From Chthoniobacteraceae bacterium (GTDB lineage Bacteria; Verrucomicrobiota; Verrucomicrobiia; Chthoniobacterales; Chthoniobacteraceae), in the NCBI GenBank assembly GCA_037190965.1, contig JBBCKI010000015.1, positions 1 through 64,000 of the forward strand: DNA of 64,000 nucleotides. The letters run 5' to 3'. Each line of letters starts with the position of its first letter. The first letter of the stretch is position 1. Below the pieces are notes generated by a model. The model saw only the letters and a program-made list of their open reading frames with translations. It had not been told where the DNA came from and searched no databases. Shown here in pieces: positions 14,880-38,296 of the stretch. The position numbers and the translations under genes were made by a program.

Positions 14880-15535
14880 TCTGCGGCCTCCAGTTCGGCG
14901 TTATCGCCACTGCCTTTGCCCTCGACGTTAGGCTCGGTGGGCTGATCGGCGACTTGATAAAGGGCAACCTGTTCTTCCCACTCCGTCCCTTCAAACGGAA
15001 TGGCGCGCGCCAACGTCGGCAGGATCTCGATGCCCGATTCGCCTGGGCGGTCGTCGTTGGACTGATAGCGAATGAGCCGCTTGCGCCGCAGCTTGGAAAG
15101 GATGCGCTCCAGGTGCGCGGGCGTCGGCGGGACGATCTTTTCGAAGTAGAGGCGCAACCGCGCATCGAGATCGTTGGCGGTCAGCATGGCGGTGTCGCTG
15201 GTCTGCATCATGCGATGGTCGTCGTAAATCCTCCAGAGCGTCAGGACGACGAGCGTTTCATCTTTGCTGAAGCGGGTGGTCAGTGGGCATTCCCCCGGGA
15301 TGGGGCGCGCCTGAAAGAGAGGCCGGTCGGGGTCCTGGAACAGCTCAATGCCCAGCGGGGCGAGGTATTCCGCCAGCTCCGCGCGGTAGAGGCGCGCGAG
15401 CTCGAAGAGTTGCCTGTCGCGCCCCGCGTCGCCGAAGATCACGCCGGTGCCGAGAAGATCGCCGAGGATTTCGGAGACGGCGGCACGATCCGCCTGCGGG
15501 ATGTGCGCCCAAAAAGAAGGCCAGGAAGGAGTCAT
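14876..15535 (-). CDS. jetB: Wadjet JetB (DUF4194-like KITE subunit)
   Basis: 219-aa winged-helix-like protein between jetA and jetC, with ATGA overlaps on both sides. ETLVVLTLWRIYDD motif. Confidence 0.85.
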   Translation of the reverse strand: MTPSWPSFWAHIPQADRAAVSEILGDLLGTGVIFGDAGRDRQLFELARLYRAELAEYLAPLGIELFQDPDRPLFQARPIPGECPLTTRFSKDETLVVLTLWRIYDDHRMMQTSDTAMLTANDLDARLRLYFEKIVPPTPAHLERILSKLRRKRLIRYQSNDDRPGESGIEILPTLARAIPFEGTEWEEQVALYQVADQPTEPNVEGKGSGDNAELEAAE

Positions 15536-17034
15536 TCTATGCGTTCGAGGGTGATGCGTTCCACCCGATGCCCACCTTGTTCATCGGATAGAAGAGCTTC
15601 AGGCGTAAGGCCAAGCTCCGTGCGTTGCGTGAGAACCCGCCACTTGACGGGCCGGGAGGAGGTCACCCCGTTCCCCTGCTCGAAGGCGAGCGCGGCGAGG
15701 AGATCAAGGAAATCGTCGGAGTTGAGATGAAAATCAGCCGTGGAGAGCTTTTCCCCGCGCTCGGGAAGCAGGCTCTCGATCAACCGCACCGCGCGCTGCG
15801 GAGTAATGGCGTCGCGGGTACGACGGCGGATGATGCTTTGCGCGTCGATCAGATCGCCAGACGCGGGCGGCTCGGCCAGTGAAAGATCGACCGGCGGTCG
15901 GGCGCGGCGCGGGCGCGAAAGGGCATCGCGGCCAAAGCAAAGTTCCACCTCCGGCGAGAGGAGAGTAAACCCCGGTTCCGCGGCAAAATCGGCAAAGGTC
16001 CGCCCCTCGCTGGCCTTATTGACCGCCTGCATAAGCTTGCGCACCTGCTCGGGCCTGCGGCCACGGAGTTCCGTCTGGTAACGATACCGCGCGGCGGAAA
16101 GACGGCTGAAGTCGGCAATGCGGCCATCGACGATCCGCTGCTTGGCGAGAATCGCGGCAAGCCCGCCCTCCAGCGTCGAGAGCATCCGCTCTGCCACGGT
16201 GTAGGAGCCGATTTCGTCCATGCCGTGATGCGCCGCAAGCCCTTCGGCCAGCCGTTGTTTGGTCAGGGAGTCGGCAAGAGCGTCCTGCACGACCAGGCGC
16301 GCCTGCTTGAGCTTCGGGAGCAAACCGGCCTTCTCGAGCGCATCGTAGCAGACCATGTGTTCGCCTTCGTGGAACTCCACGAGAAAACGCTGGAGCGTCT
16401 CCCCGGCGGACGCGCTTGCCCGCTGGCGCTCCTCCTCCCGGAAGATAAGCGTTTCCACCGCGTGCATCTGATCACCGGCACGGGCCAGCCGCGCGAGAAG
16501 CTCCTTGGTGACCTGCCGAAGCTCGTCGGGCTCCCGCCGCGAAGGAGACAGAGCCCCATCGCTCAGCAGCGTCTCGCAGATCGATCGCACGGTAGCCGAA
16601 AAATCCTTCAACTCGGCGAGGTCGCTCTGGCTCAGCTCCCTGAGGAGCCGTAGCAGCGGACGCAGGTGTGGCGAAAGCAGCACCCATCGTTCGTCGAGGT
16701 TCACGGGCCGATAGATGAGCCACCCGGCTTCCAGCATCCGGTTGTAAAACTGCCCGGCGCGGAGGCGGAGATCTGCCAATCCCGCGCCTTCGTCCTGGTC
16801 CAGCTCCACGGAGGGGTGCGCGCCAAGGACGTCGCGGATGAGCGCCAAAGCGTCATCCGGAGCGAGTTGCCCCCCTTCATCCGCGCTGGCCGCCAGACGA
16901 TCCGCGCAGTCGATATAAACCGGCGCGGAAGGGCGGCTCAAGGGCCGGAAGAACCCCTTGCCGAGCAACGGCATCAGCAAGCTGCTGAGGAGGCCTGAGG
17001 GAGCGCTTGAGGATGTTTCGCGAGGGGCAGCCAT
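15532..17034 (-). CDS. jetA: Wadjet JetA kleisin-like subunit (DUF5716-like)
   Basis: About 500 aa and first in the operon. FFRPLS..YIDC and LEAGWL motifs; helical. Start set at MAAPRE. Confidence 0.82.
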   Translation of the reverse strand: MAAPRETSSSAPSGLLSSLLMPLLGKGFFRPLSRPSAPVYIDCADRLAASADEGGQLAPDDALALIRDVLGAHPSVELDQDEGAGLADLRLRAGQFYNRMLEAGWLIYRPVNLDERWVLLSPHLRPLLRLLRELSQSDLAELKDFSATVRSICETLLSDGALSPSRREPDELRQVTKELLARLARAGDQMHAVETLIFREEERQRASASAGETLQRFLVEFHEGEHMVCYDALEKAGLLPKLKQARLVVQDALADSLTKQRLAEGLAAHHGMDEIGSYTVAERMLSTLEGGLAAILAKQRIVDGRIADFSRLSAARYRYQTELRGRRPEQVRKLMQAVNKASEGRTFADFAAEPGFTLLSPEVELCFGRDALSRPRRARPPVDLSLAEPPASGDLIDAQSIIRRRTRDAITPQRAVRLIESLLPERGEKLSTADFHLNSDDFLDLLAALAFEQGNGVTSSRPVKWRVLTQRTELGLTPEALLSDEQGGHRVERITLERIE

Positions 17035-17240
17035 GAACGGCGAGAAGAATACGATTCCCCGCCGGGCTGGCAATTTTATTGTCGCGGGTTCTGCCAGGGG
17101 CGGGCGCATGGGTAGTAGCCTGCAAGATGGGGCTTGCCTCCGCGCCTGTTGAATCATTAGTTAAATGTCTTCCGCATGGAGACCAGCAAACCACGGCCGG
17201 CACTCAGGGAGAGACCCCTGATTTTTTGGGATGATTCAAT

Positions 17241-21732: not shown

Positions 21733-21785
21733 TGCCGCCCTTCGTTTAACTCACGGGATTGTCCAATCCGATTCATGCTTTAAGG

Positions 21786-23486
21786 ATGAACGAGAGAGAT
21801 TTCGTGCAGGTTGCGCTGTTTGTAGGCGTGCTGTCGGCGGCGACCCCCTTGCTGGGCCGCTATATGGCCCGGGTTTTCGCAGGAGAAAGAACAGAGAGAA
21901 CGATCTTTTCCCGATGGCTCGGCAAGGTTGAGAAAGGCATCTACCGGCTCTGCGGCATCGACCCTCATCGAGAGATGACCTGGACGAGTTACCTTTGGGC
22001 GCTGCTGGCATTCAACGCCTTGGGGATCGCAACGGTGGTCGCCATCCTGATGGCGCAGGCGTGGATGCCCCTTAATCCGCAAAACCTGCCTGGTCTCTCA
22101 TTTCCCCTGGCTTTCAATACGGCGGTCAGCTTCGTCACCAACACCAACTGGCAGGCCTATTCGGGGGAATCGACGATGAGCTACGGCTCGCAGATGATCG
22201 CGCTCTGTGTTCACAATTTCCTGAGCGCGGCGACCGGGATGGCGGTGGCGGTGGCGCTGATCCGGGGGTTGACGCGCCGCTCGGCGGAAACGCTCGGCAA
22301 TTTCTGGGCTGATTCCACCCGCGCCACGCTCTACATCCTCCTGCCGCTTTCATTCATCCTGACGCTCCTTTTGATCCAGCAAGGGGTAGTGCAAAGCATC
22401 GCTCCCTACGCGGAAATTGCCACCGTCGAGGGCGCAAAGCAGACGATTCCGCTCGGGCCTGCGGCCTCGCAGATCGCCATCAAACACCTCGGCACCAATG
22501 GCGGCGGCTTCTTCGGGGTGAATAGTGCGCATCCGTTCGAGAACCCGACGCCATTCACCAACTTCCTCCAGATGCTCGCGATCTTTGTAATCCCCGCGGG
22601 GCTGACTTACACCTTCGGCCAGATGACCGGGAACCGGCGGCAGGGGTGGGTAATTTTCGGCGCGATGATGGCCCTCTTTCTCGCGGGTTTCTTCATTGCC
22701 TGGCGCGCCGAGCTGGGACACAACCCCGCCACGGGCCTCACCGCCTCGATGGAAGGAAAGGAGGCGCGCTTCGGAATCATGAACTCCGCTCTCTTTGCGA
22801 CCGTCACGACGGACGCCTCGTGTGGCGCGATCAGCAGCATGCATGACAGTCTTTCGCCGCTCGCCGGTCTTGTCACCCTGGCCAATATGATGCTCGGCGA
22901 GGTCATCTTCGGCGGCGTCGGCGCAGGGCTTTACGGGATGCTCCTTTTCGCGATCCTGACCGTTTTTATCGCCGGTTTGATGGTGGGGCGAACGCCGGAA
23001 TACCTGGGCAAAAAAATCGAAGCCCACGAGATTACGTGGGCGGTCGTCGCCGTGCTCGCCCCTGCCGTCACCATCCTCCTCGGCACCGCCATCGGGTGTG
23101 TTGCCAAGGCGGGCGTTGCCTCCATCGCCAACCCCGGCCCGCACGGCTTCAGTGAAATTCTCTATGCATTCACCTCTTCCGTGGCGAACAATGGCAGCGC
23201 CTTCGCGGGCCTCAACGCCAATACCCCCTTCTACAACTACGGGACAGCGATCGCCATGCTGATCGGGCGGTTTGCGATCATCCTTCCCGTGCTCGCGATC
23301 GCGGGGAGCCTCGCCCGCAAGAAAATCGCGCCCGCTTCGCTTGGGACGTTCCCGACCACCGGCGTCACCTTCGCCGCCTTACTCGTTGGAGTCATCCTGA
23401 TTGTCGGTGGCCTCACCTTTTTTCCCGCCCTTTCCCTTGGCCCGATCGTCGAACATCTCCTCGCCAAGGCCGGGAGCGTTTTTTGA
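21786..23486 (+). CDS. kdpA: K+-transporting ATPase subunit A
   Basis: [43 protein letters not shown]. Confidence 0.98.
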
Positions 23487-23494
23487 CCCCGACC

Positions 23495-25567
23495 ATGAAA
23501 CCAAAGACTTCAATCCTCGATCCCGCCTTGCTTCGCGGCGCGGCGTTCGACTCCCTCCGCAAGCTCAACCCTCGTCACCAGTGGCAAAACCCGGTGATGT
23601 TTGTCGTCTATATAGGCGCCATCCTCTCGACCCTCTTCACCGTCGTCCACTTCAACGCGTTTCACCTGCAAATCACGCTCTGGCTCTGGTTTACGCTTCT
23701 CTTTGCAAACTTCGCGGAAGCGATGGCGGAAGGACGGGGCAAAGCGCAGGCCGCGACGTTGCGCGGCATGCGAACCAAGACGGAGGCGCGCAAGCTGGCG
23801 AACGGCCGCGAGCAACTGGTTCCTGCCGGGGACCTTCGCGGCGGCGACCTTGCGATCTGCCAAGCGGGCGACACCATCCCCGCCGACGGCGACGTGATCG
23901 AAGGGATCGCCAGCGTCGATGAATCAGCCATCACCGGCGAGTCCGCCCCAGTCATTCGCGAAAGCGGCGGTGACCGGTGCGCCGTGACGGGCGGCACCCG
24001 CGTCATTAGCGACCGCATCGTCATCCGCGTCACCAGCGAACCGGGAAGCTCTTTCCTCGACAAGATGATCGCGATGGTGGAAGGAGCGCGCCGTCAGAAG
24101 ACCCCCAACGAGATCGCGCTCGGCATTCTGCTGGTCAGCCTCACGGTGCTCTTTCTCTTCGCGGTGTTCACACTACCAGCCTTCGCTAGCTATGCCGTCA
24201 AGGCCCAGACCGGGTCGGTCAACCTCTCCCTGCCGGTGCTGATTGCGCTTCTGGTCTGCCTGATCCCAACCACCATTGGCGGGCTCCTGAGCGCCATCGG
24301 CATCAGCGGGATCGACCGTCTGATTCGCAGCAACGTCCTTGCCACCAGCGGGCGCGCCGTGGAAGCGGCGGGCGACGTCGACGTGCTGCTCCTCGACAAA
24401 ACCGGAACCATCACGCTCGGCAACCGGATGGCGGCGGCCTTCCATCCCGTCGGGGGCGTCACCGAGGAACGCCTCGCCGACGCCGCGCAACTCGCCTCGC
24501 TAGCTGATGAAACGCCCGAGGGGAGGAGCATTGTCATTCTCGCCAAGGAACGGTTCGGCCTGCGGGGACGCGAAGTCGCGGAGCCGCACGCGAGCTTTGT
24601 GCCTTTCACCGCGCAGACCCGAATGAGCGGTGTCGATTTTCCCGACCTCGGCCCCGAGCATCCCGCCCGCTCCATCCGCAAGGGAGCGACCGATTCGATC
24701 CGCAGCTACGTGGAATGCGCCGGCGGCAAATGCCCGGAGGGTGCGGAACAAATCATCGAGGAGATCTCCCGGCGCGGTGGCACACCGCTGGCCGTCGCGG
24801 AGGGAAGCGAAATCCTCGGCGTCATCGAGTTGAAAGATGTCGTCAAAGGCGGCATCCGGGAGAGGTTCCTTCATCTCCGAAAGATGGGCATCCGCACCGT
24901 CATGATCACGGGCGACAATCCCCTCACCGCCGCCGCGATTGCCGCCGAAGCCGGGGTGGACGATTTCATGGCACAGGCGACGCCGGAGGATAAGCTCCGC
25001 CGTATTCGCGAAGAGCAGGCCGCCGGACGCCTTGTCGCCATGACGGGTGACGGCACCAACGATGCCCCCGCCCTCGCCCAGGCCGACGTGGGCGTGGCGA
25101 TGAACACCGGGACGCAGGCGGCGCGCGAGGCAGGGAACATGGTCGATCTCGATAGTAACCCGACCAAGTTAATCGAGATCGTCGAGATCGGAAAACAACT
25201 TCTCATGACGCGCGGCGCGCTCACGACGTTCTCCATCGCCAACGACGTGGCAAAGTACTTTGCGATCCTCCCGGCCATGTTCAGCGGGCTCTATCTCACC
25301 GAGGGTGCCACCACGGGACCGCTTGCGGCATTGAACATCATGCGCCTCCATTCTCCGCAGAGTGCTATCCTGAGCGCGGTGATCTTCAATGCGCTCATCA
25401 TCGTCGCGCTCATCCCGCTTGCCCTTCGCGGTATCGCCTATCGCCCCACCGGTGCGTCGGGGGTTCTACGGCGCAACGTCCTTCTCTACGGCGTCGGCGG
25501 TGTCGTCGCGCCGTTCATTGGCATCAAACTCCTCGATCTGCTGCTGGTTGCTCTGCACCTGGTGTAA
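23495..25567 (+). CDS. kdpB: K+-transporting P-type ATPase subunit B
   Basis: [15 protein letters not shown] phosphorylation motif, [10 protein letters not shown]. Confidence 0.98.
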
Positions 25568-25571
25568 TTTT

Positions 25572-26129
25572 ATGAAAACACTCCTCCAGGCATTCCGCCT
25601 CCTTTTCTTCCTGAGTCTGCTGACCGGCGTTGTCTATCCGCTAGTCATGCTATTGCTTGGGCAGACGCTCTTTCCCCGGCAAGCCAATGGGAGCCTCATC
25701 CCAAGCGATGGCAAACCGGAGGGCTCGGAACTTCTCGCGCAAAGGTTTGAGAGCCCGCGCTATTTCTGGCCCCGTCCATCGGCCGCCAACTACGCAACCG
25801 TACCGAGCGGTGCCAGCAACCTTGGGCCGACCAGCAAAACGCTTCGGGAAGCCGTGGCTCAACGCCGTGCCCGATATACCGGACTCACGCCTTCCATTCC
25901 AGACCCGGCGAACGATCTGCTTACCACCTCGGGGAGCGGGCTCGACCCCCACATCTCCCCGCTTGCCGCCTCCCAGCAGATTGATCGCGTGGCGGCTGCC
26001 CGGGCGATTCCCGCCGACCGCGTGCGGGAACTGGTGGCGAAGCATACCGAAGGGCCTCAGTTCGGGATGTTCGGGGAATTCCGGATCAATGTTTTAGTTC
26101 TGAATCTGGCGCTTGATCGTTTACATTAG
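25572..26129 (+). CDS. kdpC: K+-transporting ATPase subunit C
   Basis: YFWPRPS, SGASNLGP, SGSGLDPHIS, INVLVLNLALD. Confidence 0.97.
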   Translation: MKTLLQAFRLLFFLSLLTGVVYPLVMLLLGQTLFPRQANGSLIPSDGKPEGSELLAQRFESPRYFWPRPSAANYATVPSGASNLGPTSKTLREAVAQRRARYTGLTPSIPDPANDLLTTSGSGLDPHISPLAASQQIDRVAAARAIPADRVRELVAKHTEGPQFGMFGEFRINVLVLNLALDRLH

Positions 26130-26205
26130 GTGGTATGCGCCGCGTTTTTGGCCAAAAAGCGCCTTTTAGCCGCTCCTCGGCAAATTCGTGGACACAACCT
26201 CAGTC

Positions 26206-28878
26206 ATGACTGAAGAACAGCGCCCAGATCCCGATGCGCTCCTGGCCTCCATCCGCGAGGAGGAGACCGGGCCTCGCCGTGGCAGGCTGAAGATTTTTTT
26301 CGGCATGTGCCCCGGCGTGGGGAAAACCTACGCAATGCTGGAGGCGGCGCGCCAGCAGCAGGCCAAGGGGGTGGAGGTGGTGGCGGGAATCGTGGAAACC
26401 CACGGCCGCCCGGAAACCGCCCGGCTGCTCGAAGGAATTCCCATCGTGCCGCGCGCGCAGATCTCTTACCGGGGGATCACCCTGGAAGAGATGGATCTCG
26501 ACGCGCTGCTCGTCTGGCATCCCGATCTGGTGCTCGTCGATGAGCTCGCCCATACCAACGTCCCCGGCAGCCGCCATCTCAAACGATTCCAGGATGTTCT
26601 GGAACTGCTCGACGCCGGGATCGACGTCTACACGACGCTCAATGTCCAGCATATCGAAAGCCGCAAGGACACCGTGCGGCAGATCACCGGCGTCGAAGTG
26701 CGCGAGACGGTGCCTGACTCGATGCTCGACCTGGCAGATGAAATCACCCTCATCGATCTCTCCCCGGATCAACTCCGTACGCGCCTCTCCGAAGGGAAGG
26801 TCTATTTCCAGGATCGGGCCGCCACTGCCGCCGACAACTTCTTCCGCGCGAGCAACCTCGTGGCGCTGCGCGAGATGTCGCTGCGACTCACCGCCGAGCA
26901 TGTCGACCGCGACCTGCGCCAGATCAAGGGAGCCACGGGCGAGCCGTGGAAAGCCGGGGACCGGTTGATGGTGGCGATCAGCGGCAGCCCCACTTCGGAG
27001 AAACTGATCCGCTGGACTCGCCGCGCCGCAGCCTCGATGGAAGCGAGCTGGATCGCCGTACACGTGGAAACCCCGGAGTTGTCGTCCTCGCCTCTCAACG
27101 AAGTGCGCCTCGGGCTGAATCTCGCCCTGGCGCGGCAGCTTGGCGCGGAAGTCGTGATGGTGGACGGAAGCAACATTGCCGCCACGCTGTTGCGTGTCGC
27201 CAGGCAGCATAATGTCTCTCAGATCATCGTCGGCAAACCGGGGCCGCGTACATTCGGCACGCTTTTCAGAAGATCGCCGGTGGACTGGTTGGTTCGCCAT
27301 AGCGGGGAGATCGACATCCAGCTCGTCAAAGGAGAAGAGGAGCCCTCGGGACGTCCTCCCGCCACCTCGCTGGCATCGCCGATCCCCAGCAAGCCGCTTT
27401 GGCATGACTATGCAATCAGCCTTGCCGTGGTTGCCGGGGTCACGCTTCTTGGGACGCTTATGGAACCGGTCACCGGTTACTGGGCGATCGCGTTGATTTA
27501 CCTGCTCGCCGTGATCGCCTGTTCGCTGCGGTTGCGGCGGTGGCCCACGCTTCTTCTTGCCGCGCTGAGCGCCATCCTTTGGGACCTCCTGTTCATCCCG
27601 CCCCGACTGACGCTCAACATTAGCGAAGTGCACGACTTCATGATGTTCGGCATGTACTTCGCGGTGGCCCTCATTGTCGGTCATCTGACTTCCCGCCTCC
27701 GGGAACGTGAAGAGGCCGAACGCCGGGGCGAAGCGCGCGCCACCGCGCTCTACCGGCTCTCGCGCGCGTTGGCCGCCAGCCGTGAGGCTGCCGAGACCGC
27801 CGCCATCGCCGTTCGGCAGATTCGCGAAACCTTCGGCGCGGAAAGCGCCCTGCTGGTGCGCGACGAAACCGGTTATTTTTCCGGCGCGGCGCACCCGGCA
27901 AGCTCGTTTCTTCCCACTGCCAAGGAGGAAAGCGTGGCAGCCTGGGTCTTTCAGCATCGACAGGCTGCCGGACAGTTTACCAATACGCTGCCCGACTCCG
28001 AAGCGTTCCACCTGCCGCTCATCACGGGGGGCGGCACGGAAGGCGTGCTGGCCATCAAATTCCCCTCCAAAACGCCGCTCTCCATGCGCCGCAGAGAGTT
28101 GCTGGAAGCGTTTGCGGCGCAGATTGCCGTCACCCTCGAAAAGGACCGGCTTGCTTCAGCCAGCCGAAAAGCCCAGGTGGCGGCGCAATCCGAAAAGCTC
28201 CAGCGCACGCTTTTTGACACCGTCTCTCACGAGTTGAAAACCCCGCTCGCCGCGATTGTTGCCGGGTTGGAACAAGCCGATGAGACGGGTAAACCCGTGC
28301 CGGTTGAAACCAGGCAAGCCGTGACGCGCCTGACGCAAGTCGTCAATCATTTGCTCGACATGACGCGCCTCGAGTCCGGCTTGCTAAAGCCGCACATGGA
28401 ATGGGTCGACCCGGGCGAACTTGTCAATGAAGCCTTGGAGGGGATGAGGGCGCAGACGCAGTCACACCGACTGACCGTCAAGATCGACTCGGAACTCCCC
28501 CCCATCCGGGTGGACCCTGGCCTCATTGAACAAGCGCTGGCGATTCTCGTCTCCAACGCCACCATTTATTCCGCGGCAGAGAGCGAGATAGAGATTTCTG
28601 TCACGCTTCGCGAAGCCTCGCTGCAACTGGCCGTGGCGGATCGTGGGCCAGGGCTGAAACCGGGCGACGAAGAGAAGGTTTTCCAACGATTTTACCGGAG
28701 CGACGGGAGCCGCGCCGGGGGAATCGGGCTTGGACTCTCCATCGCGCAGCGTCTTGTGGAGGCGCACAATGGGCGCATCAGCGCGGCCAACCGCCCCGGC
28801 GGTGGCGCACTATTCCTTATCGAACTCCCTGCGACGGAACCGCTGCGCCTGCCCGAAGAACCGTCAAACCTATCATGA
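26206..28878 (+). CDS. kdpD: Sensor histidine kinase KdpD
   Basis: GMCPGVGKTYAML, DELAHTN, USP domain, 4 TM helices, GAF, SHELKTPL. Confidence 0.97.
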   Translation: MTEEQRPDPDALLASIREEETGPRRGRLKIFFGMCPGVGKTYAMLEAARQQQAKGVEVVAGIVETHGRPETARLLEGIPIVPRAQISYRGITLEEMDLDALLVWHPDLVLVDELAHTNVPGSRHLKRFQDVLELLDAGIDVYTTLNVQHIESRKDTVRQITGVEVRETVPDSMLDLADEITLIDLSPDQLRTRLSEGKVYFQDRAATAADNFFRASNLVALREMSLRLTAEHVDRDLRQIKGATGEPWKAGDRLMVAISGSPTSEKLIRWTRRAAASMEASWIAVHVETPELSSSPLNEVRLGLNLALARQLGAEVVMVDGSNIAATLLRVARQHNVSQIIVGKPGPRTFGTLFRRSPVDWLVRHSGEIDIQLVKGEEEPSGRPPATSLASPIPSKPLWHDYAISLAVVAGVTLLGTLMEPVTGYWAIALIYLLAVIACSLRLRRWPTLLLAALSAILWDLLFIPPRLTLNISEVHDFMMFGMYFAVALIVGHLTSRLREREEAERRGEARATALYRLSRALAASREAAETAAIAVRQIRETFGAESALLVRDETGYFSGAAHPASSFLPTAKEESVAAWVFQHRQAAGQFTNTLPDSEAFHLPLITGGGTEGVLAIKFPSKTPLSMRRRELLEAFAAQIAVTLEKDRLASASRKAQVAAQSEKLQRTLFDTVSHELKTPLAAIVAGLEQADETGKPVPVETRQAVTRLTQVVNHLLDMTRLESGLLKPHMEWVDPGELVNEALEGMRAQTQSHRLTVKIDSELPPIRVDPGLIEQALAILVSNATIYSAAESEIEISVTLREASLQLAVADRGPGLKPGDEEKVFQRFYRSDGSRAGGIGLGLSIAQRLVEAHNGRISAANRPGGGALFLIELPATEPLRLPEEPSNLS

Positions 28879-29552
28879 AACCAACCGCCTTGATCGTGGA
28901 TGACGAAGTGGCGATCCGCCGCCTATTGCGAATTGCGCTCGAAGCCAACGACTACGCCGTGCATGAAGCGTGCTTTGGCCAGCAAGGGCTTGCCGAAGCG
29001 GCCTGCCGCCGTCCCGATGTGATCCTGCTCGATCTTGGTCTTCCCGATCTCGACGGGGCGGAAGTGCTCAGGCGATTGCGCGAATGGAGCGAAATTCCCG
29101 TTTTGATCCTCTCCGTGCGCGACGCCGAAGAGCAGAAGATCGCCGCGCTCGACGCGGGAGCGGACGACTATGTCACCAAGCCTTTCAGCACGGCGGAACT
29201 GCTCGCTCGCCTGCGTGTGGCACAGCGACGCGCGAAACCGGCCGAAAGCGGAGCGATCTTTGCAAGCAACGGCTTGCAGATCGACTTCGTCAGAAGGATC
29301 GTCACCGTGGAAGGTCACGAAGTCAGACTCACCGCCACTGAGTACGCTCTACTGCGCCTCTTCGCCCGGCACGCCGGGCGCGTTCTGACCCATCGGCAAA
29401 TCTTGCGCGAAGTCTGGGGGCCAAACGCCGAGGAGCACCGTCAGTACCTTCGCGTTTACGTGACCCACCTCCGCCGCAAGATCGAACGCAACCCGACAAA
29501 GCCCGTTCATATCAAAACCGAATCGGGCATCGGGTATCGATTGATGATGTGA
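28875..29552 (+). CDS. kdpE: Response regulator KdpE
   Basis: LDLGLPDLDG receiver, OmpR-type wHTH YLRVYVTHLRRKIE; follows kdpD. Confidence 0.96.
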   Translation: MKPTALIVDDEVAIRRLLRIALEANDYAVHEACFGQQGLAEAACRRPDVILLDLGLPDLDGAEVLRRLREWSEIPVLILSVRDAEEQKIAALDAGADDYVTKPFSTAELLARLRVAQRRAKPAESGAIFASNGLQIDFVRRIVTVEGHEVRLTATEYALLRLFARHAGRVLTHRQILREVWGPNAEEHRQYLRVYVTHLRRKIERNPTKPVHIKTESGIGYRLMM

Positions 29553-29607
29553 TATCGACGGATTTCGGGTTAATTCATTGGGAAACGCCCCGCAGTCACG
29601 AGTTTCC

Positions 29608-29758
29608 CTCGTTCCCAAACTCTGTTTGGGAACGCCCGTGTCTTCGAAACTCCAGTTTCGCAACCCTTGTCCATTCCGCCACCCTGCACGAGATGACAAA
29701 GCTTTCGAATCAGAGATTCGGGGACAATGGCATTGCCAATCTGGAGATTGGTAACGAG
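29608..29758. repeat. REP/REPIN-like inverted palindromic element
   Basis: CTCGTTCCCAAAC-TCT-GTTTGGGAACG at the left end and a degenerate inverted copy GCATTGCCAATC-TGGA-GATTGGTAACGAG at the right end. Inner hairpins CGAAACTCCAGTTTCG and CGAATCAGAGATTCG. Confidence 0.75.
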
Positions 29759-29804
29759 GAAACACTAGCCAAATACTCACGATGGCCGATCAGATCGACG
29801 ACCT

Positions 29805-30635
29805 CTAACTATCATCGAAAGCATCAGTGGACTCTTCCATCTCAAACTCTTCCGGTTTCTCCTTCGGCTTGCTTCCCGGTCGGACTGAGCGGTCGAACCA
29901 ATTCTTCCCGTCGGACAAAAGAGCGGCCCTGAGTTCTTCGGGAATTCGTTCCACGAAGCCGTCATACCGTTTCTTGGCCTCCTTGCGGACCTTGACGGGC
30001 AGATAGATCACCCGGCCATCATCCTCCGGCAGGCGGTCGGCGCTGATCGCGCATTCGCGTGCCAGGACAAAGAAGAAGACGTCCTCCGCCAGTGCGGCTT
30101 CGCCGATGGTCTCCTTTGGGTTTCGGCGCGCAATCCGCCCCACGGTGGAGTTCTCCAAGAGCCAATGGGCCAGCTTGACGGCCTTTTGGTTCATCCGGCG
30201 GTCGGTGATTTTGGCGAGCAGTGAAGGATAGCCTTCCTTCGCGCAAATCAACAGCAGATCCCGGGCGGTAGGGCCGTAGCCACCGCTCCCGGCAATGAAG
30301 TCGCTCTCCGGAAGGGCTGCGCACTCTTTGACAAGATCGATCGCCAGCTTGCTGATCGCCTTGATTCCAGCCGTGCGCAATTGCGCCAGCCACGCCTCGG
30401 GGTCCACGGCTCCGGCCGTGGAATGATGCAAACCAAGGCTCAAAATGCCGATGGTGGTGTTGAGCCCCTTGCGGACGGTTTCCGTGGTGAGCGAACCGTA
30501 AAACTTTCGCGAGACCTCGACGACCATCCTGGTCATCTCCTCCTCCCATTGCGGCAGGCGGGGGTCGCCCTCCCGCTTGGCGAGAGAAAGGGCGACGCTC
30601 AAGGCGGGCCGTTTGTCGATGACTTGAATTTCCAC
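29805..30635 (-). CDS. Hypothetical protein, AtcC-like
   Basis: Last gene of the J-domain operon. N-terminal VIDKRP..AL..AKREG and GILSLGL resemble my recollection of AtcC homologs. Confidence 0.6.
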   Translation of the reverse strand: MEIQVIDKRPALSVALSLAKREGDPRLPQWEEEMTRMVVEVSRKFYGSLTTETVRKGLNTTIGILSLGLHHSTAGAVDPEAWLAQLRTAGIKAISKLAIDLVKECAALPESDFIAGSGGYGPTARDLLLICAKEGYPSLLAKITDRRMNQKAVKLAHWLLENSTVGRIARRNPKETIGEAALAEDVFFFVLARECAISADRLPEDDGRVIYLPVKVRKEAKKRYDGFVERIPEELRAALLSDGKNWFDRSVRPGSKPKEKPEEFEMEESTDAFDDS

Positions 30636-30652
30636 TGTGCTGTTTTCTTAAA

Positions 30653-31336
30653 CTAGATATCGATGAACTCCTCCGTGGCGGTCTCTTCCGGCGTCTGGTG
30701 GCTGGCGGCTTCATCGTGAAGGGCACTCAAGACGGAGAAAGCAAACTCGTGCACCGCCTCCTCGCCGGAACCGTAGACATCCAGCGCCATGGCGGCGATC
30801 TCATGAAATTTCTCGGGACGGTTTTCGTAGGTCAGCGCCAGCAACTCCTGGTGCGTTCCGGTCGAGAAAGGATAGCCATGCGGGCGTTCGAGAAGAGCAA
30901 GGGTTTCCTTATGGTTGAGCGCCATGAAGAAGAGAACGTCGGCTCCCAGCTCATGATCGAGCAAGACCGAGAGCATCTCGATGCGTCGCGCCGGTTCTTC
31001 CGAGGTGAGAATCATCGGGCAGAGGAAATCCTCCACGTCTCGCTGGAACGAAACGAAATCCATGGTCGGGGAAGGCTGCACCTCTCCCCACCGCGCACCA
31101 AGGCGGCTGAAGGCAGCGATGAACTGCTCCGGAGAGATAAAGGCGTGGGCCAGCGACGGCTTGGTCATATCGGCATCGCTGACCATGACGGCGATCTCGG
31201 CGGGTTTGAACTCCGCCACGACCTCCGCCAGCTGGTTATCTCCAGCGTTCCCGGCAATCCGGGCGAGTTGGTTTTCGGCGGCCCCGGCCCCGGATTGCAG
31301 CGCTTCGCGAACGGAAAGGGTATTATTCGTTGTCAT
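30653..31336 (-). CDS. Hypothetical acidic protein, AtcB-like
   Basis: AENQLARIAGNAGDNQL...DMTKPSL...ISPEQF resembles AtcB homologs. Start MTTNN overlaps the upstream gene. Confidence 0.6.
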   Translation of the reverse strand: MTTNNTLSVREALQSGAGAAENQLARIAGNAGDNQLAEVVAEFKPAEIAVMVSDADMTKPSLAHAFISPEQFIAAFSRLGARWGEVQPSPTMDFVSFQRDVEDFLCPMILTSEEPARRIEMLSVLLDHELGADVLFFMALNHKETLALLERPHGYPFSTGTHQELLALTYENRPEKFHEIAAMALDVYGSGEEAVHEFAFSVLSALHDEAASHQTPEETATEEFIDI

Positions 31337-31799
31337 CGGAAAGGTCGTCTTCTTCGTCGTAACCGTCGTAGTCTTCGTCCTCGTCGTCATCCTGTACAGG
31401 AGCCGAGGCACGCTTCGGTGCGTGTGAGTTGAGCTGGATCGCGCCCCAGAGGGCGCTTTGATCGTTTTGGAGCAGGAAATCCCACCCTGCCTTTGCGGAG
31501 GCGGCAATCTTGAGCGCCTTCTTTTCGCGAACCTTGGCAATCGCCTCTTCGGCGGGAGTCCGGTTGGATGCGAGCTGGTCAATCAGCTTGCGGTCGCCGA
31601 CCTGCATCTTGCCATAAAACGCCATGGCGCCGTAGGCCGGATACTCTGCGAGCAGAGGGAGCATCTGCGGAAGCTGTTCCAGCATTTCGTTGCAATGCTT
31701 GATGAGTTGTTTTTCGCCTTCGGCCTTGGACTTCGCCCGATCAAAAAACAAGCTAATCTGTTCGTCGAATTCGGCCTGAATGTTGGGTGTTATTTGCAT
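31323..31799 (-). CDS. Hypothetical protein with acidic tail, AtcA-like
   Basis: IAASAKAGWDFLLQNDQSALWGAI motif; D/E-rich C-terminus. Confidence 0.6.
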   Translation of the reverse strand: MQITPNIQAEFDEQISLFFDRAKSKAEGEKQLIKHCNEMLEQLPQMLPLLAEYPAYGAMAFYGKMQVGDRKLIDQLASNRTPAEEAIAKVREKKALKIAASAKAGWDFLLQNDQSALWGAIQLNSHAPKRASAPVQDDDEDEDYDGYDEEDDLSDDNE

Positions 31800-31809
31800 C
31801 TAAAAGAGA

Positions 31810-32070
31810 TCAGCATTGCTGGAAATACTCGGCGACAGCCTGCCGCGCGACTTCGGGCAACGATTCCACGGGTTGATTACGAAGGGCTTCGTCGTAGGCC
31901 CGGCGCTTCGCTGGGTCACCGAGCACCTCGGCAGCCTCCTGGGCGGCTTTGAACAGCATCGGGTCTCCACCCGCGTCAGGGTGATGAAGCCGGGCAAGCC
32001 TCCGGTGCGCCGCCTTGATCTCGGCAGCATCGGCATTCGGGGCAACCCCGAGTGTCTGGTAGTGGTTCAT
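31810..32070 (-). CDS. Minimal J-domain co-chaperone (AtcJ-like)
   Basis: MNHYQTLGV...EIKAAHRRLARLHHPD...LGDPAKRRAYD plus an extension of about 25 aa; 86 aa in total. Confidence 0.88.
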   Translation of the reverse strand: MNHYQTLGVAPNADAAEIKAAHRRLARLHHPDAGGDPMLFKAAQEAAEVLGDPAKRRAYDEALRNQPVESLPEVARQAVAEYFQQC

Positions 32071-32214
32071 TCGGGCCGAGCATATACGCACGTTTCCCGT
32101 CCGAGAAAGCTCTGTTTTGATATTCCCCGATAGCTCCGTAATCATCCTCACGCGAGGCTTCATCCAGCGCACCGGAAGGAGCCGATGATCCGACCTCGCA
32201 CATCAAAATGGCGC

Positions 32215-35200
32215 CTAGTGGCCGTGAAGAGCTGGAACGCCGTCAGCCCTCTTTGATGACTGCCCTTTGGCGATGCTCTCAAGCCATGCCATGCATTGCG
32301 GGTATTCGAGTTCATTCTTCGAATACTTTGCAAAAACACCAAGAGGCTCAGCTGCTTCCTCATGTCTGCCAAGATGATAAAGGGCTGCTCCTTTGTACCA
32401 GTAGAGTTGATACAACGTGGGAAATCTGGGAATTGCTTCAGTTGTGGCCTGAAGAAGCCGATTCCAGTCTTCGTGCAAGGCCGCATCGCTAACACGGAGA
32501 GAGTCCCGAACCCGCTGCCCCCCAAGTCGAGACGTGACATTCTCAAACCAGGCTTTTGGGACGACCGATGCATCAGACATCGCCAATGGGAGATCGTAAG
32601 CATCTTGGCATTCCTTGGGGTCCAATGTTGCCCAAGCCTTCAAGATTGCATGATAGCTTGCCTTTGTAGCCGCGCGTCTCGCCAGCGCGAACTCCTCACT
32701 CATTCCCGCAAGCTCGAAGGCTCGAAGGGATAACGCGAGGAGCCTTTCCGATAGAAGATCACTGGCCTCATACGCGTCGATCGCTTTGCGAATAAGAGAA
32801 GCATCCTTTCTCTGAAGATAAAAACTCAACCTGAAATAGTTTGCAACATTGTCTGAATTTGGCCCGCGCAGTGTAGACAAAGAGCGCTCCAGCTCCATCA
32901 TCTCTCCTTTGCGCCATTTGGATTGCACTTCAAACATCCGGATCATCTGGGATGAAGCCGGAAACTGCTCCGCATCACGAAACGGTTTAACCAAAGAAAC
33001 CATCGCTTCGTTCACCTTGGGATCATCCAGATCCATGAGAAAACAAAAACTCATGATAATCATCGCCTTCTCAGCATCCCCGGGGAGGCGCTGAAGGGCG
33101 GCCGAAGCGAGGTCCAGAGTCAACCTCGATCTGGCTTCCGTGGGATCCCAGTCTCTTATGAACTCTTTCCAAAACTCGATATTCGTCAGATCGACCTGTC
33201 TGGTTGCGATCTGGTAAAGGCGCGCTTTGGTGGCGGCTGCCTCACTGAGAAAACCGAGGCGTAGCGGATCACTCAGGGTTCCATAAAATTCCGGCTCCGC
33301 CGTTTGCGATTCCGGAAAATGGTGAAGAACAATATCTCGCATCGCATTGACCGCCGGCCGCCATAGCTTGAAATGGTTCAGCGATTTAAGGCATCCCATC
33401 TGAAGGGAAATCAGGCTTGAATCGTTGGGCATCGTCGCACTGACCTCTGTCAGTTTTTTATACACCTGATCAGCAAGATCGATCTGGTCCATTTCCAGCA
33501 ATCGCAAGAAACACCGCTTCAACTCTTCGTGCTTGAGAGGAGTAAGCTCACCCTCAAGGAGATTGATACAAAAGCTATTGATCGCTTTGCCGGATGACCG
33601 GTCAACAGCCAGAGCCTCGCGGCGAAAGTCTGCGATGGCCCGACCGTTTTCACTGAACTTCGCGTTCAGCGGATGCTTCCGGAGTTTATCAAAATGGACG
33701 GCGTCTTCCTCCTTGGAAGCGTTCATCAAAGCAATCCAAAGCAGTCCGATTCTTGTTTGTTCCGGGAGATCCTGATTATCAATCTCCGGTTCAATCAGGC
33801 TCCTTGCCTCCTCTTTTGTATGGGCATAGCTCGATAGTCTCTTCAAAGCTTCTACGAATGCCACGTCCCATCGCCCGAAGGGCTGCTCGGGATCGCACGC
33901 AACAAGGAGGGTCAATTTGATGATCTCCGGATCGGCAAAATTTCCACCGGTCTCGAAAACCTGATCCAGGTTTGAGAGGCGGGGATCGCCGAGGGATTTC
34001 GGCTCGGCAAAGTCAAACCAGGCCGGTTTGTTCTTCGCCAGCCAGCGCTCCACGGCCTTCACCCTCCGTTTCGAATCGATCACGGCGTCAGTAAGCTGCG
34101 AATAGCGCTCTGTCAGCGTTTTCAGATCGGCTGCAGCGGCTTTGATCTCGGGATGATCCAATTCTTGCTTAAGGAGTTCTTCCTCATCGGCAGCCCGTCC
34201 CGATTCCCTGTAAAGATCCGCGAGGAACGTGACGCTCAATGCTCGATATTCCAGCTTTTTCGGATGTTTGAGCATCGCTTCCAAGGCGGCAATGGCGGGA
34301 GGCATCTCACTTTTCACACGGCGTGCCATCATCGCCCAAAGGCGGGACATCACTTCCGAACAGCGATCCTCTGGTTTGGCCTTCCGATGATAGGCGTGAA
34401 TCAACTCCAAGGCTCGATCATTGAGGTTGCTATCGATGCATCCAATCGTCGCATGCATCTGAATTTCCGGCGCAATCTTGAGATCATCAGATTCGAAATT
34501 CTCATAAATTGCCAGGGTCAATTGCCGCATTTCATTGGCGGCGTCGCCAGCCAGGGTCGGCCCTTGGTAGGCCAGGAAGCGAGTTAATACAGGGAGCAGG
34601 GAAGATTGCCACCGCGCCCCATGGGCAAGAAATCGCAGTTTTGTAAACAGTTCAACTGAGTCTTTTCTGCTCAAGGCGGACTCCATCTCCTGGCAAAAAC
34701 CGCTGAGATTGGCGAATATCGGAATGACTTTTTCATCGCCAAGCGGGGCCAATCCCAGTTTCTGCTCCAACTTTAGCCAATCGGCCCACCATTTTTCGCT
34801 TCCACTCCAATACTTTTCCGCAGAAGTCTCATCTCCAGTTAAGGCAATCATCTGCTCAATCTGCCATGCTGTTTTCGCTTCGCGAATGTTGGCAATATTC
34901 TCGGAACGGAGAAGAGAAAGTATCCGCAGCGATTCGCTTCTATTCCCCAGTTCAAGGTTTAAGAGCGCCGCACGAAGGAGATCGTCTTTGACGCTGATAT
35001 ACACCAGTTGGGTTTCAATCTTGCGGTAGATCTCCAAAGCCTTTGCGTAAAGATGCAAGGCTTCGAAATTCCCGGCAAGCCGTCGGAGCGCGGTGACACG
35101 AAAGGCCGCCGGCAAGGAGGGTTCCTCTAGAATATTCTCATGGAGCTTCTTTGCCCCCTCAATATCTCCCCTTCGATCCGCGACTTTGGCTCGAAGGAAG

Positions 35201-36363
35201 CGTCCCTCGAGGTAACTTTCATTTTCATGAGGCAGGAGATCGCACAGATCGAGCAAAAGAGGCAACAACGGCTCAGGTTCATTGCAGTGGCGCTCTTTCC
35301 AGTCTGCCATGTTGGCTGCTCTCCACAATGCGGCGGGAAACTCCGCCTCGGGCTCGAAACGGAGCAGATATTCAAGACTACAAGCAAAGGCGAGGTTGGA
35401 GCTTCTCTCCCCCTCAGCTTGAGCGATAGCGCTCGCAAAGTCGGCTTTATTCTCCAATTTGGTGCCATCGAGGACCGGGCTGGACCGTGGGTTTTCTTTG
35501 AGGAAACCGGCCAGTCTGGCCTTGATCTCTCGGGATGCCGTTACTGCGCGGATGAGGTTCCGCGAAGATTTCAGAGCTTCCCTAAAGCCTTCTCCTGGAT
35601 CCACGGATTTTTCCGTCTCGATCAATTGCAATATCAGCTCCTCTCTCGTTTCGGCGCGGGAATCCGGCAGAAGGGTTCCAACGGACTCCGCGAGTTGCAT
35701 GAGCAAAGCGTCACGGGATTCAGGTTGCCTTCCCATTACCTTTTGGATCTCTGATCGGACCTCCGCCATTTGCCCTTCGAGAGCGAGAAGCTTGACGAGA
35801 AGCGTAAATACGTGAGGGCTCGCCTCAGTATCAAGAGGAAGTATATTACGCAGGACCTTGATTGCCTCCATTCCTGATCTCGATTCGAGGAGAACCGCGA
35901 GATCATAACCAGCCCAGGACCGTCTATAATCCGAGAGTTGTTTGTCTTCGCTCAATCGCTTAAGGATGCGCTCGGCTTCCGGGGGCTCAGAATCGGTAAT
36001 CAACTGAGCCAAAAGGTACTCTCCCCATGCGAAGTACTCGGCAGAAACATTCTCACGATACGTCGCCAGAAGATGGCGAATCTCAGAAATGCTCTCCTTG
36101 CCATCATTTTCGCCCCGTTTCATCCAGGCAAGCTTGGTTCCCGCCAAAAACAGAGTCGTTTTATCAAACGGGAAATACTGAATGGTTTTCAGCAGGGCCT
36201 CCCGGCGGAGAATGGGATCTCCCTTGCCCGGAAAGCGCTTATCGACGAGTTCCAACTGCCCCTCTCCCGTGGCCAACATAGGAAAGTCATCCAACGTCAA
36301 GGGGCTTTCAGACAAAACTGCCAGTGGGAGCGGAGAGCCCCAGGGAACGATCGAGCCATGCAT
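32215..36363 (-). CDS. Large TPR/alpha-solenoid protein, probably the C-terminal part of the upstream gene
   Basis: 1382-aa all-helical ORF with TPR-like units (e.g. YWYKGAALYHLGRHEEAAEPL). Overlaps the upstream ORF by 56 nt in another frame; no signal peptide. Confidence 0.75.
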   Translation of the reverse strand: MHGSIVPWGSPLPLAVLSESPLTLDDFPMLATGEGQLELVDKRFPGKGDPILRREALLKTIQYFPFDKTTLFLAGTKLAWMKRGENDGKESISEIRHLLATYRENVSAEYFAWGEYLLAQLITDSEPPEAERILKRLSEDKQLSDYRRSWAGYDLAVLLESRSGMEAIKVLRNILPLDTEASPHVFTLLVKLLALEGQMAEVRSEIQKVMGRQPESRDALLMQLAESVGTLLPDSRAETREELILQLIETEKSVDPGEGFREALKSSRNLIRAVTASREIKARLAGFLKENPRSSPVLDGTKLENKADFASAIAQAEGERSSNLAFACSLEYLLRFEPEAEFPAALWRAANMADWKERHCNEPEPLLPLLLDLCDLLPHENESYLEGRFLRAKVADRRGDIEGAKKLHENILEEPSLPAAFRVTALRRLAGNFEALHLYAKALEIYRKIETQLVYISVKDDLLRAALLNLELGNRSESLRILSLLRSENIANIREAKTAWQIEQMIALTGDETSAEKYWSGSEKWWADWLKLEQKLGLAPLGDEKVIPIFANLSGFCQEMESALSRKDSVELFTKLRFLAHGARWQSSLLPVLTRFLAYQGPTLAGDAANEMRQLTLAIYENFESDDLKIAPEIQMHATIGCIDSNLNDRALELIHAYHRKAKPEDRCSEVMSRLWAMMARRVKSEMPPAIAALEAMLKHPKKLEYRALSVTFLADLYRESGRAADEEELLKQELDHPEIKAAAADLKTLTERYSQLTDAVIDSKRRVKAVERWLAKNKPAWFDFAEPKSLGDPRLSNLDQVFETGGNFADPEIIKLTLLVACDPEQPFGRWDVAFVEALKRLSSYAHTKEEARSLIEPEIDNQDLPEQTRIGLLWIALMNASKEEDAVHFDKLRKHPLNAKFSENGRAIADFRREALAVDRSSGKAINSFCINLLEGELTPLKHEELKRCFLRLLEMDQIDLADQVYKKLTEVSATMPNDSSLISLQMGCLKSLNHFKLWRPAVNAMRDIVLHHFPESQTAEPEFYGTLSDPLRLGFLSEAAATKARLYQIATRQVDLTNIEFWKEFIRDWDPTEARSRLTLDLASAALQRLPGDAEKAMIIMSFCFLMDLDDPKVNEAMVSLVKPFRDAEQFPASSQMIRMFEVQSKWRKGEMMELERSLSTLRGPNSDNVANYFRLSFYLQRKDASLIRKAIDAYEASDLLSERLLALSLRAFELAGMSEEFALARRAATKASYHAILKAWATLDPKECQDAYDLPLAMSDASVVPKAWFENVTSRLGGQRVRDSLRVSDAALHEDWNRLLQATTEAIPRFPTLYQLYWYKGAALYHLGRHEEAAEPLGVFAKYSKNELEYPQCMAWLESIAKGQSSKRADGVPALHGH

Positions 36364-38296
36364 GCAAAGAGAGGTGGGAATTGAAGAGAGCCTGGAACTT
36401 GTCCGGCGATATAAAAGACTCCTTCACACGTAACTCGAGCCTGGCGATACATTGATGATCAAGGAATTCCCAGCTGGCTGTAATATCGAACACTTCGGAC
36501 CGTATCTGAAGAAGACGAGGGAGCTCGATTGGCTGTAAACCCTCGGGAAGGCTGATTCGCGCAATGACCTTTACGGTATCAGGCCAGAGGTGGAATGATG
36601 TCTGGCGACGCTTGTCGGAACCTAGATCATTGAACAGAAGGCTGGCTTGTGGAAACGAAACGCGATGCTCCCGTCGGGAGTGATCATTGGCGGACGGAAC
36701 AATAAAATAAGTTTTCAACTGATGCCTGCCATCCCAATTCTCAAGAGAACTTTTAGTGACGTCGATGATCTCTGCACCTTTGAAGAATGCCTGTATCAAA
36801 TCGTTCGCCCTTGATCGGAGCCCATCGTTGTCAAGACGAGCGAAGACATGAGCGTTGACGGCACCGTAGTATCCGCCGCTGTTCTTGGTCATCCACCCTG
36901 AAAGTTCGCCGCTGGATGAAAGCTTCATGTCGAACTCGTAAGAAAACTCCCCTGCGCTTTGCGCGGGGGTTCGAACCCATTCCGCTCCTTTGCTGCCAAT
37001 AAGCAAGCCATCACGATCAGCATCTCCCGGAGAGATCAGCCCAGCTTTGGCATAGGCGATCGTTGGATCGCAAAAAATGGGGCGGCCGGGTTCGAGATAC
37101 ACGGCAAGAATGGCGTGATCGAACTGACGATAATCGGGACTCCTCCGTTCGATTCGCCCCACGTTCTCCGTGTTCAACAGGACGAGGGAAGCGTCGATTC
37201 CTTTATGCCGCAACATCGCACGAAGCAGGGTCGCTTTATCCTTGCAATCGCCGTACTGATTCGCCCAGACCGCACTGCAATCATAAGGTTGTATATCGGC
37301 CGTTCCGAATGCGAGACTGAGATAACGGACCTCCCTCGCTACCTTGGTGGTGAGGATATCCAACACCTCGGCCCGGTTCTTTGCATCCTTTGTCCATTCA
37401 TCGACCTCTCGGGCAAGAGTCTCTGAAATCATGGACCGCTCTTCCACGAGCGGATAATACCATTTCACAAAGGCATCCCAGTCGGGAAGAGTCGTCAGGT
37501 AGAGCACTGGGCCAACCTGATCTGTGGGCGGGGAAGAAATTTCATTGGGACGCGCTGGGATGTCTTTTCCACTCCAGATCAATCGAACGCGATCTCCGGC
37601 CAGATTTTTCTTCTGCGGCTCTGGGATATTCCCGCCCACTGGGGTGATCTTGAGGCGATCAGCCATCGGAGCGGGCATCTCGATCACGTACCGAAGAGTT
37701 TGGATGGGCCACCCCCAGGCAAACCACTTCCCCGCAGTGAACTCCCCGGGAATCCGGAATTCGCTCTCACTGATAACGACGATCGATTCCGTTATGGAGC
37801 CCGGTTTGACGTTGGGAAAAACCAACCGAAGCTCACCGGATCCGCTGTAGACTGAGTTATCAGCTTGACGCTGAGGACTTTGAAGAATGGAGGCGTTTGG
37901 AGCAACCGGTAATCTTTTCCCGTCAGGAAGAATTGTCTGAGCTTGAACCAGGCAGATCTTCTGATTCGCTTTGCGGTATCCCCACGTATCCTCCGCGATT
38001 GCCTTGGCACCGGCGTCAGTCAAAGCTTTGCTGACATAATGATGGACCGTATAGCGATTTCCCTTCGCATCAAAAAATTGAACTTCTTCGTTCAGAAGAA
38101 CGATGCAGTCGGAAGCCGAGCCCACCGTCACCTGTGAAGGCGATTTCAAAACCTCGTCAACAGGGGTAAGCAGCGGCAAGACGGCTTCCGTGAAAATCGA
38201 CGGTGCCTGCCGCGAAACTTCCTCCCCAACAGCCGTGCAAAAAGGAATCGGAATAACGATCGCAGCAACGATCCTTGTGATACGCCACAGTAACAT
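36308..38296 (-). CDS. Secreted DUF3857 plus transglutaminase-like domain protein
   Basis: Signal peptide, FPNVKPGSI (DUF3857), catalytic-type triad GDCKDKA / FDHAI / CDPT. Confidence 0.88.
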   Translation of the reverse strand: MLLWRITRIVAAIVIPIPFCTAVGEEVSRQAPSIFTEAVLPLLTPVDEVLKSPSQVTVGSASDCIVLLNEEVQFFDAKGNRYTVHHYVSKALTDAGAKAIAEDTWGYRKANQKICLVQAQTILPDGKRLPVAPNASILQSPQRQADNSVYSGSGELRLVFPNVKPGSITESIVVISESEFRIPGEFTAGKWFAWGWPIQTLRYVIEMPAPMADRLKITPVGGNIPEPQKKNLAGDRVRLIWSGKDIPARPNEISSPPTDQVGPVLYLTTLPDWDAFVKWYYPLVEERSMISETLAREVDEWTKDAKNRAEVLDILTTKVAREVRYLSLAFGTADIQPYDCSAVWANQYGDCKDKATLLRAMLRHKGIDASLVLLNTENVGRIERRSPDYRQFDHAILAVYLEPGRPIFCDPTIAYAKAGLISPGDADRDGLLIGSKGAEWVRTPAQSAGEFSYEFDMKLSSSGELSGWMTKNSGGYYGAVNAHVFARLDNDGLRSRANDLIQAFFKGAEIIDVTKSSLENWDGRHQLKTYFIVPSANDHSRREHRVSFPQASLLFNDLGSDKRRQTSFHLWPDTVKVIARISLPEGLQPIELPRLLQIRSEVFDITASWEFLDHQCIARLELRVKESFISPDKFQALFNSHLSLHAWLDRSLGLSAPTGSFV

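Follow-up and report, generated by a model that had tools for sequence, protein, structure and literature searches.

What is the tightly packed group of four minus-strand genes at positions 29,805 to 32,070 of the window, the 64,000-nucleotide stretch of Chthoniobacteraceae bacterium DNA analyzed here (contig JBBCKI010000015.1)? A first-pass annotation had taken it for a divergent and possibly rewired relative of AtcJABC, a chaperone system whose founding member comes from Shewanella oneidensis MR-1 (Maillot et al., 2019; PMC6715715). Our comparisons indicate that the four genes are almost certainly a divergent atcJABC operon. On sequence grounds, it is an Atc operon in the broad sense (Boussouar et al., 2026), lying outside the canonical PX7W subfamily. 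The four genes, with lengths in amino acids (aa), are as follows.

atcJ, positions 31810..32070, minus strand: 86 aa, a class C J-domain protein with HPD at residues 30-32.
atcA, positions 31323..31799, minus strand: 158 aa, a globular N-terminal part of about 125 aa followed by an Asp/Glu-rich tail.
atcB, positions 30653..31336, minus strand: 227 aa from ATG, all-helical, a predicted RNA polymerase binder.
atcC, positions 29805..30635, minus strand: 276 aa from a GTG start, a helical adaptor whose last 25 or so residues are variable.

The order atcJ-atcA-atcB-atcC and the tight packing are those of the broad-sense Atc system. The open reading frame coordinates confirmed the spacings given in the first-pass annotation, namely a 10-nt gap, a 14-nt overlap between atcA and atcB, and a 17-nt gap, and the translation bore out a J-protein of 86 aa with HPD and a short tail. 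In gene order, tight spacing, the atcA/atcB overlap, and the short J-A gap, the operon resembles that of S. oneidensis; in Shewanella, atcA and atcB overlap and expression of the operon is nearly constant between 7 and 37 °C, and the same study gives a J-A gap of 8-24 bp for 74 of 80 genomes (PMC6715715). The atcB frame stays open further upstream (TTG at 31582), and homologues begin at the ATG at 31336. A single read contig spanned 29705-34000 with zero differing letters, which is non-independent support, as the window may itself derive from that read run. The window's contig (C15) belongs to a genome of 4.2 Mb and 97% completeness. In two genomes of the same genus, the matches fell at coordinates identical to those in records titled Chthoniobacteraceae bacterium, in agreement with the earlier guess of a verrucomicrobial host.

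When the four proteins were compared with curated families, AtcJ matched Pfam DnaJ (E 9.6e-18) and NF050028 (E 2e-8; 34.6 bits against a cut-off of 150), with generic DnaJ models scoring higher, and AtcB matched NF047889 (E 7.4e-4; 19.1 bits against a cut-off of 440). No Pfam or NCBIfam match was obtained for AtcA, and none of note for AtcC. NF047889 was also matched by 18 of 21 close AtcB homologues. A profile of 21 AtcB relatives was then searched against 1.84 billion representatives and yielded 124 proteins, of which 100, mostly the longer ones, were scanned with NF047889; 57 of the 100 matched at E <= 0.001, and one, P0194, passed the cut-off. The cluster of P0194 contains Alishewanella proteins, one of them named cold adaptation protein AtcB. 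Through P0194, 80 metagenome loci were obtained, many of them short contigs; 60 of these loci yielded J, 74 yielded A, and 65 yielded C. As all four genes of one reference locus (L013) scored above the NCBIfam AtcJ, AtcA, AtcB, and AtcC cut-offs, we regarded these Alishewanella-type gammaproteobacterial loci as a valid canonical reference, in which they served as stand-ins for the S. oneidensis sequences.

Comparison of the four window profiles with the four canonical ones gave a diagonal, with off-diagonal E values of at least 0.085; the AtcB set in this matrix included intermediates chosen by the window's own profile, which makes it partly circular. A purely canonical AtcB set (66 proteins) was used in a deeper hhalign comparison. 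Here, AtcJ aligned with its canonical counterpart at E 4e-19 over 83 columns, tail included, AtcA at E 5.6e-5 over 40 columns, AtcB at E 9.2e-7 over 180 columns, and AtcC at E 1e-4 over 223 columns, and for none of the four proteins did any of 30 templates with shuffled columns score as high. The window proteins thus share detectable profile similarity with the canonical gammaproteobacterial copies in all four cases, and the atcJABC identity and order proposed in the first-pass annotation held. Relative to the S. oneidensis type, A, B, and C show an identity of about 20-25%, and none exceeds the NCBIfam cut-offs.

Gene order was conserved beyond the window. A GTDB scan with AtcB returned 138 pattern matches, six of which encode a relative, and J, A, B, and C lay in order at all six loci. 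Fifteen loci were examined in all, and removal of three duplicates with identical sequence left 12 distinct ones; the four genes were in the same order in 11 of these, and the remaining one (L098) is truncated within atcA by the end of its contig. Such recurrence, in 6/6 and 11/12 loci, suggests that the operon is a unit formed by more than chance, and the co-occurrence looked for in other genomes was thereby found.

The AtcJ C-terminal extension is short, about 22 aa, with the sequence SLPEVARQAVAEYF. Aligned to canonical AtcJ, in which this region reads V-x-D-P-x7-W-x-(E/Q)-Y-Y, the window protein reads V68-x-S-L71-x7-V79-x-E-Y-F, placing L71-x7-V79-x-EYF in the register of P-x7-W-x-EYY. PX7W is absent, its Trp, already reported as lacking, being replaced by Val79. 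Canonical tails carry Pro and Trp in 45/45 cases; in the verrucomicrobial tails, V68, L71, and A75 never vary (12/12), and residue 79 is a Val 11 times and an Ile once, with Trp in none. As the tail is collinear with the canonical one and L71 and V/I79 are kept in relatives, we consider PX7W degenerate rather than missing. A short J-protein with HPD and a tail of about 20 aa is shared with S. oneidensis, as is the acidic AtcA tail; the window protein differs in having L-x7-V instead of P-x7-W and a J-domain that, after HPD, is 9 residues shorter than that of canonical AtcJ. The AtcJ proteins of the window and two same-genus genomes also have His22 and Ala47 where other AtcJ proteins have Tyr/Phe, together with a short post-HPD loop.

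S. oneidensis AtcB binds RNA polymerase via D37 and D60, and its target is a helix corresponding to E. coli RpoC 215-220, according to a September 2026 preprint (bioRxiv 10.64898/2026.09.07.749886; hereafter, the preprint). D33 and D56 of the window protein align with D37 and D60 of P0194, a canonical AtcB, giving two Asp residues 23 residues apart as in S. oneidensis. In an alignment of 99 AtcB proteins, comprising the window protein and 98 matches of at least 186 aa, D33 was kept in 97 (Glu in the other two) and D56 in 96 (gaps in the other three). The host RpoC helix KKLAKR aligns with KKLTKR of E. coli, and the host genome carries three Hsp70 genes, including a DnaK gene, plus other J-proteins. 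The predicted AtcB structure is helical, with a predicted local distance difference test (pLDDT) score of 94.9. Fold searches with Foldseek and VIA-align revealed no clear solved relative of this model. Foldseek returned no match at E <= 0.001; compared with MgtE N-terminal/FliG-like structures, the best result was Z 7.3 (8gpv_A; root-mean-square deviation 3.5, 122 aligned residues), against Z 7.1 for an unrelated armadillo-repeat (ARM) protein. Among betaproteobacterial homologues of AtcB, some bear the UniRef names MgtE-like and FliG, which agrees with the weak match to the MgtE N-domain. When the AtcB profile was searched against PDB sequences, only repeat-summed transcription activator-like (TAL) repeat rows appeared, with no passing stretch, and these were treated as artefacts. 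Two AtcB homologues (P0019 and P0020) carry a precomputed match to Pfam PF27486, which may be a newer AtcB-like family; the Pfam copy used here reports none.

AtcA and AtcC proved more divergent. The acidic tail and second position of AtcA match canonical loci. The motifs quoted in the first-pass annotation were all present in the translations, but they fared unequally: that of AtcB recurs in betaproteobacterial homologues, that of AtcC recurs in part in canonical AtcC, and that of AtcA (AKAGWDFL..ALWGA), conserved within the verrucomicrobial AtcA group, finds no clear match in AtcA of the canonical gammaproteobacterial type. The verrucomicrobial AtcC group is conserved to about residue 253, with A220, Y224, P232, L239, and W246 invariant, and has its own invariant pair W246/R249 (W246-F-x-R249). 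Unlike the S. oneidensis protein, window AtcC has 276 aa rather than 298, and the last 45 or so canonical residues are without a clear match. Its predicted structure is helical (pLDDT 90.7, falling to about 50 after residue 260), and fold searches with Foldseek and VIA-align found no clear solved relative (best Z 4.7); the ESM Atlas gave no usable match for AtcC or AtcA. The AtcJ site has been placed in the AtcC C-terminal region (the preprint, citing Weber 2023), which makes a joint change of tail and partner possible.

Both the host phylum and the altered tail have precedents. The founding system is that of Shewanella, and the window host, in Verrucomicrobiota, differs from it in this respect; however, the preprint reports atc in Verrucomicrobium sp. 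GAS474, of the same phylum as the window host, without PX7W. It also shows that the motif-less AtcJ tail of Solidesulfovibrio still binds AtcC in a tail-dependent manner, and that AtcJ-AtcC binding in Janthinobacterium is tail-dependent with a Trp-to-Ala change (bioRxiv 10.64898/2026.09.07.749886). Like the preprint set, the window has atcJABC outside Beta- and Gammaproteobacteria, an AtcJ without PX7W, and an AtcB with both Asp residues. It differs from GAS474, whose AtcA has no acidic tail according to the preprint, and its AtcC is shorter than 298 aa, whereas the AtcC proteins selected in the preprint are substantially longer, as compared by description. Like Janthinobacterium sp. B9-8, the window replaces the Trp of PX7W by a small hydrophobic residue (Ala there) and has the AtcB Asp residues at 33 and 56; unlike the window, that strain is betaproteobacterial, keeps the Pro, and has a long AtcC. 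In our literature search, no further publication dealt with Atc in hosts outside Proteobacteria. The main text of the preprint does not name Chthoniobacteraceae, and its supplements (genome list, Table S1, Figures S1 and S6) may cover the group. A verrucomicrobial Atc system and AtcJ tails lacking PX7W have therefore been described before, and the window operon is largely ordinary, opening no new kind of system.

Within Verrucomicrobiota, the operon is patchily distributed. In samples of genomes that each included the window genome, it was present in 6 among 31 close relatives, in 11 among 151 genomes of the family (6 among the 73 of high quality), and in 2 among 401 genomes of the phylum with a completeness of at least 90%. 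Flanks were unshared among the window and six loci, some compared over only 0.3-1.2 kb, except for one pair lying on opposite sides of the operon. In a quick, unrooted tree of 69 AtcB proteins, window AtcB and the Chthoniobacteraceae records fell together within a clade of 39 rows (support 97) that excludes the gamma- and betaproteobacterial proteins, the betaproteobacterial ones forming a separate clade; the other verrucomicrobial copy, from the same class (L093, G181), fell in a different subclade, and its AtcA has no acidic tail. No copy was found in 50,697 phage records, 72,556 plasmid records, or viral contigs, and no betaproteobacterial loci bridging AtcA and AtcC were found in plasmids or viral contigs. 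The G+C content at third codon positions (GC3) of the operon was 0.72, the 62nd percentile and typical for the genome, and gives no support for recent import. The scattered occurrence, the lack of shared flanks, and the split of the verrucomicrobial copies into two groups are compatible with a cassette that moves laterally, and they argue against strict vertical descent; loss from an old ancestor is an alternative that could produce the same picture. The preprint describes Atc descent as mostly vertical, a published picture that the patchy spread in Verrucomicrobiota qualifies. Two loci titled Akkermansia muciniphila (L003 and L006) also carry atc operons that group with the Chthoniobacteraceae copies; identical loci are present in genomes assigned to the same family as the window, and these titles are probably mislabelled.

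How might the operon work? By analogy with published systems, AtcB would dock via D33/D56 on the basic RpoC helix KKLAKR and restrain RNA polymerase, and AtcC would bind AtcB. The AtcJ tail helix may in turn bind AtcC via L71, A75, V79, Y82, and F83, which would replace the canonical Pro and Trp, while the J-domain would stimulate DnaK and thereby limit or release the AtcB-polymerase complex; AtcA would be accessory. Conservation of this whole interaction chain is likely, and the odds that it serves growth in the cold in the Chthoniobacteraceae host appear evenly balanced. A divergent but intact AtcJABC operon that works like that of Shewanella is the reading we favor, and we hold it to be likely.

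Several observations weigh against this reading. None of the four window genes reached the curated cut-offs of NF050028, NF047888, NF047889, and NF047890, and the AtcA match is confined to its 40 columns. Canonical AtcA and AtcC hidden Markov models failed to recover the window genes in a whole-genome scan, so the identity of A and C is drawn from pairwise profile scores and position. The tail compared by itself gave E 0.006, and 2 of 100 shuffles reached its score; being weakly above chance alone, it leans on the adjoining J-domain for its register. The invariant C-terminal block of canonical AtcC (about residues 256-295, ending PLLGWP.Y) has no clear counterpart here, although the alignment is of low confidence in this region and PALL..G..WF of the window could correspond to PLLGWP.Y. 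The host RpoC helix is permissive rather than diagnostic, as it is also present in E. coli, and GAS474 AtcB neither bound E. coli polymerase nor was toxic there, its own polymerase not having been assayed (bioRxiv 10.64898/2026.09.07.749886). Could the locus then be a generic short J-protein beside three unrelated open reading frames? The generic DnaJ models that outscore the AtcJ model and the individually weak A and C matches would suit this explanation, but it is largely refuted by four independent matches on the diagonal in canonical order, by the profile link from AtcB to P0194, which passes the AtcB cut-off and aligns at both key Asp residues, and by the synteny in 11 of 12 loci, and we consider it hardly credible. 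The operon might instead be homologous to Atc but rewired, with the Trp-less tail and short AtcC using a different interface or with AtcJ reaching DnaK clients by another route that does not involve binding AtcC. The change of Trp to Val or Ile in every verrucomicrobial tail, the shortened J-domain, and an AtcC group that leaves the canonical block unmatched while keeping its own W246/R249 all point this way. Nevertheless, the tail matches canonical ones in length, register, and its E-Y-aromatic end and shows conservation of its own, the four genes remain together, and the mismatch at the AtcC end may be one of alignment. Since the interaction network survives motif loss in Solidesulfovibrio, rewiring is not the default reading, and we regard it as unlikely. 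The replacement of Trp noted in the first-pass annotation stands, but its "rewired variant" and the novelty attached to it were overstated, given the precedents described above.

Less likely again is a mobile toxin-antitoxin-like or defense cassette, in which AtcB would block RNA polymerase and AtcC-AtcJ-DnaK would neutralize AtcB, the cold sensitivity of Shewanella then being a side effect of lost control. Overproduced AtcB is indeed toxic and is rescued by AtcC-AtcJ-DnaK (bioRxiv 10.64898/2026.09.07.749886), and patchy presence, unshared flanks, and two AtcB groups of Verrucomicrobiota in different parts of the quick tree are features that a mobile cassette would share. However, in Shewanella, atcB deletion or mutation of the two Asp residues impairs cold growth, which a pure toxin would not predict, and the empty phage, plasmid, and viral-contig searches, the genome-typical GC3, and the mostly vertical descent found in the preprint all speak against such an element. 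The divergent, intact Atc operon is thus preferred over these explanations. As a more tentative extension, which we regard as rather unlikely, the Chthoniobacteraceae copy may be part of a third AtcB clade, mostly uncultured and distinct from the gamma- and betaproteobacterial ones, where the cassette passes from genome to genome as a unit instead of by vertical descent and the L-x7-V tail and shortened AtcC (W246-F-x-R249) have co-evolved as a second J-adaptor code. If true, the operon would be a chaperone-gated brake on RNA polymerase that is portable and for which cold is not necessarily the trigger.

As the gene targets and mechanism of Atc are still open, distant copies are useful as natural variants. 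The window copy displays the residues that have survived divergence (D33, D56, G32, and S61 in AtcB; V68, E81, and Y82 in the tail), and its compact AtcC and Trp-less tail are material for mapping the J-AtcC interface. Copies of this type are unannotated in databases, where they appear as hypothetical proteins below the NCBIfam cut-offs.

Around the operon, no minus-strand promoter-like site and no terminator excess were found, and an Rfam scan of 29400-32400 gave no match. Upstream of atcJ, at a distance of 144 nt and likewise on the minus strand, lie a 1382-aa gene with weak tetratricopeptide repeat-like (LapB) matches and a gene for a DUF3857/transglutaminase protein of 662 aa. Both genes of this block (32215-38296, minus strand) have a low GC3 (0.57, the 6th percentile of the genome), and the block was possibly acquired separately. 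On the other side, a kdpA-kdpB-kdpC-kdpD-kdpE potassium uptake cluster (21759-29552, plus strand) converges on the atc operon; it shows no linkage to atc in relatives, and kdpE was present in one of five same-genus genomes examined. Between the converging ends of kdpE and atcC, at 29603-29762, lies a dispersed repeat of about 160 bp with terminal inverted repeats and inner hairpins, which looks like a miniature inverted-repeat transposable element or a REPIN-type element. It occurs at 73 loci on 41 of the 73 contigs of the genome, many copies being 90-93% identical, and shows very high multi-contig depth in the read data and no Rfam match. Further away, at 10384-17157 on the minus strand, the window carries a Wadjet-type jetA-jetB(DUF4194)-jetC(SMC)-jetD cluster, the jetD match falling just below the Pfam cut-off.

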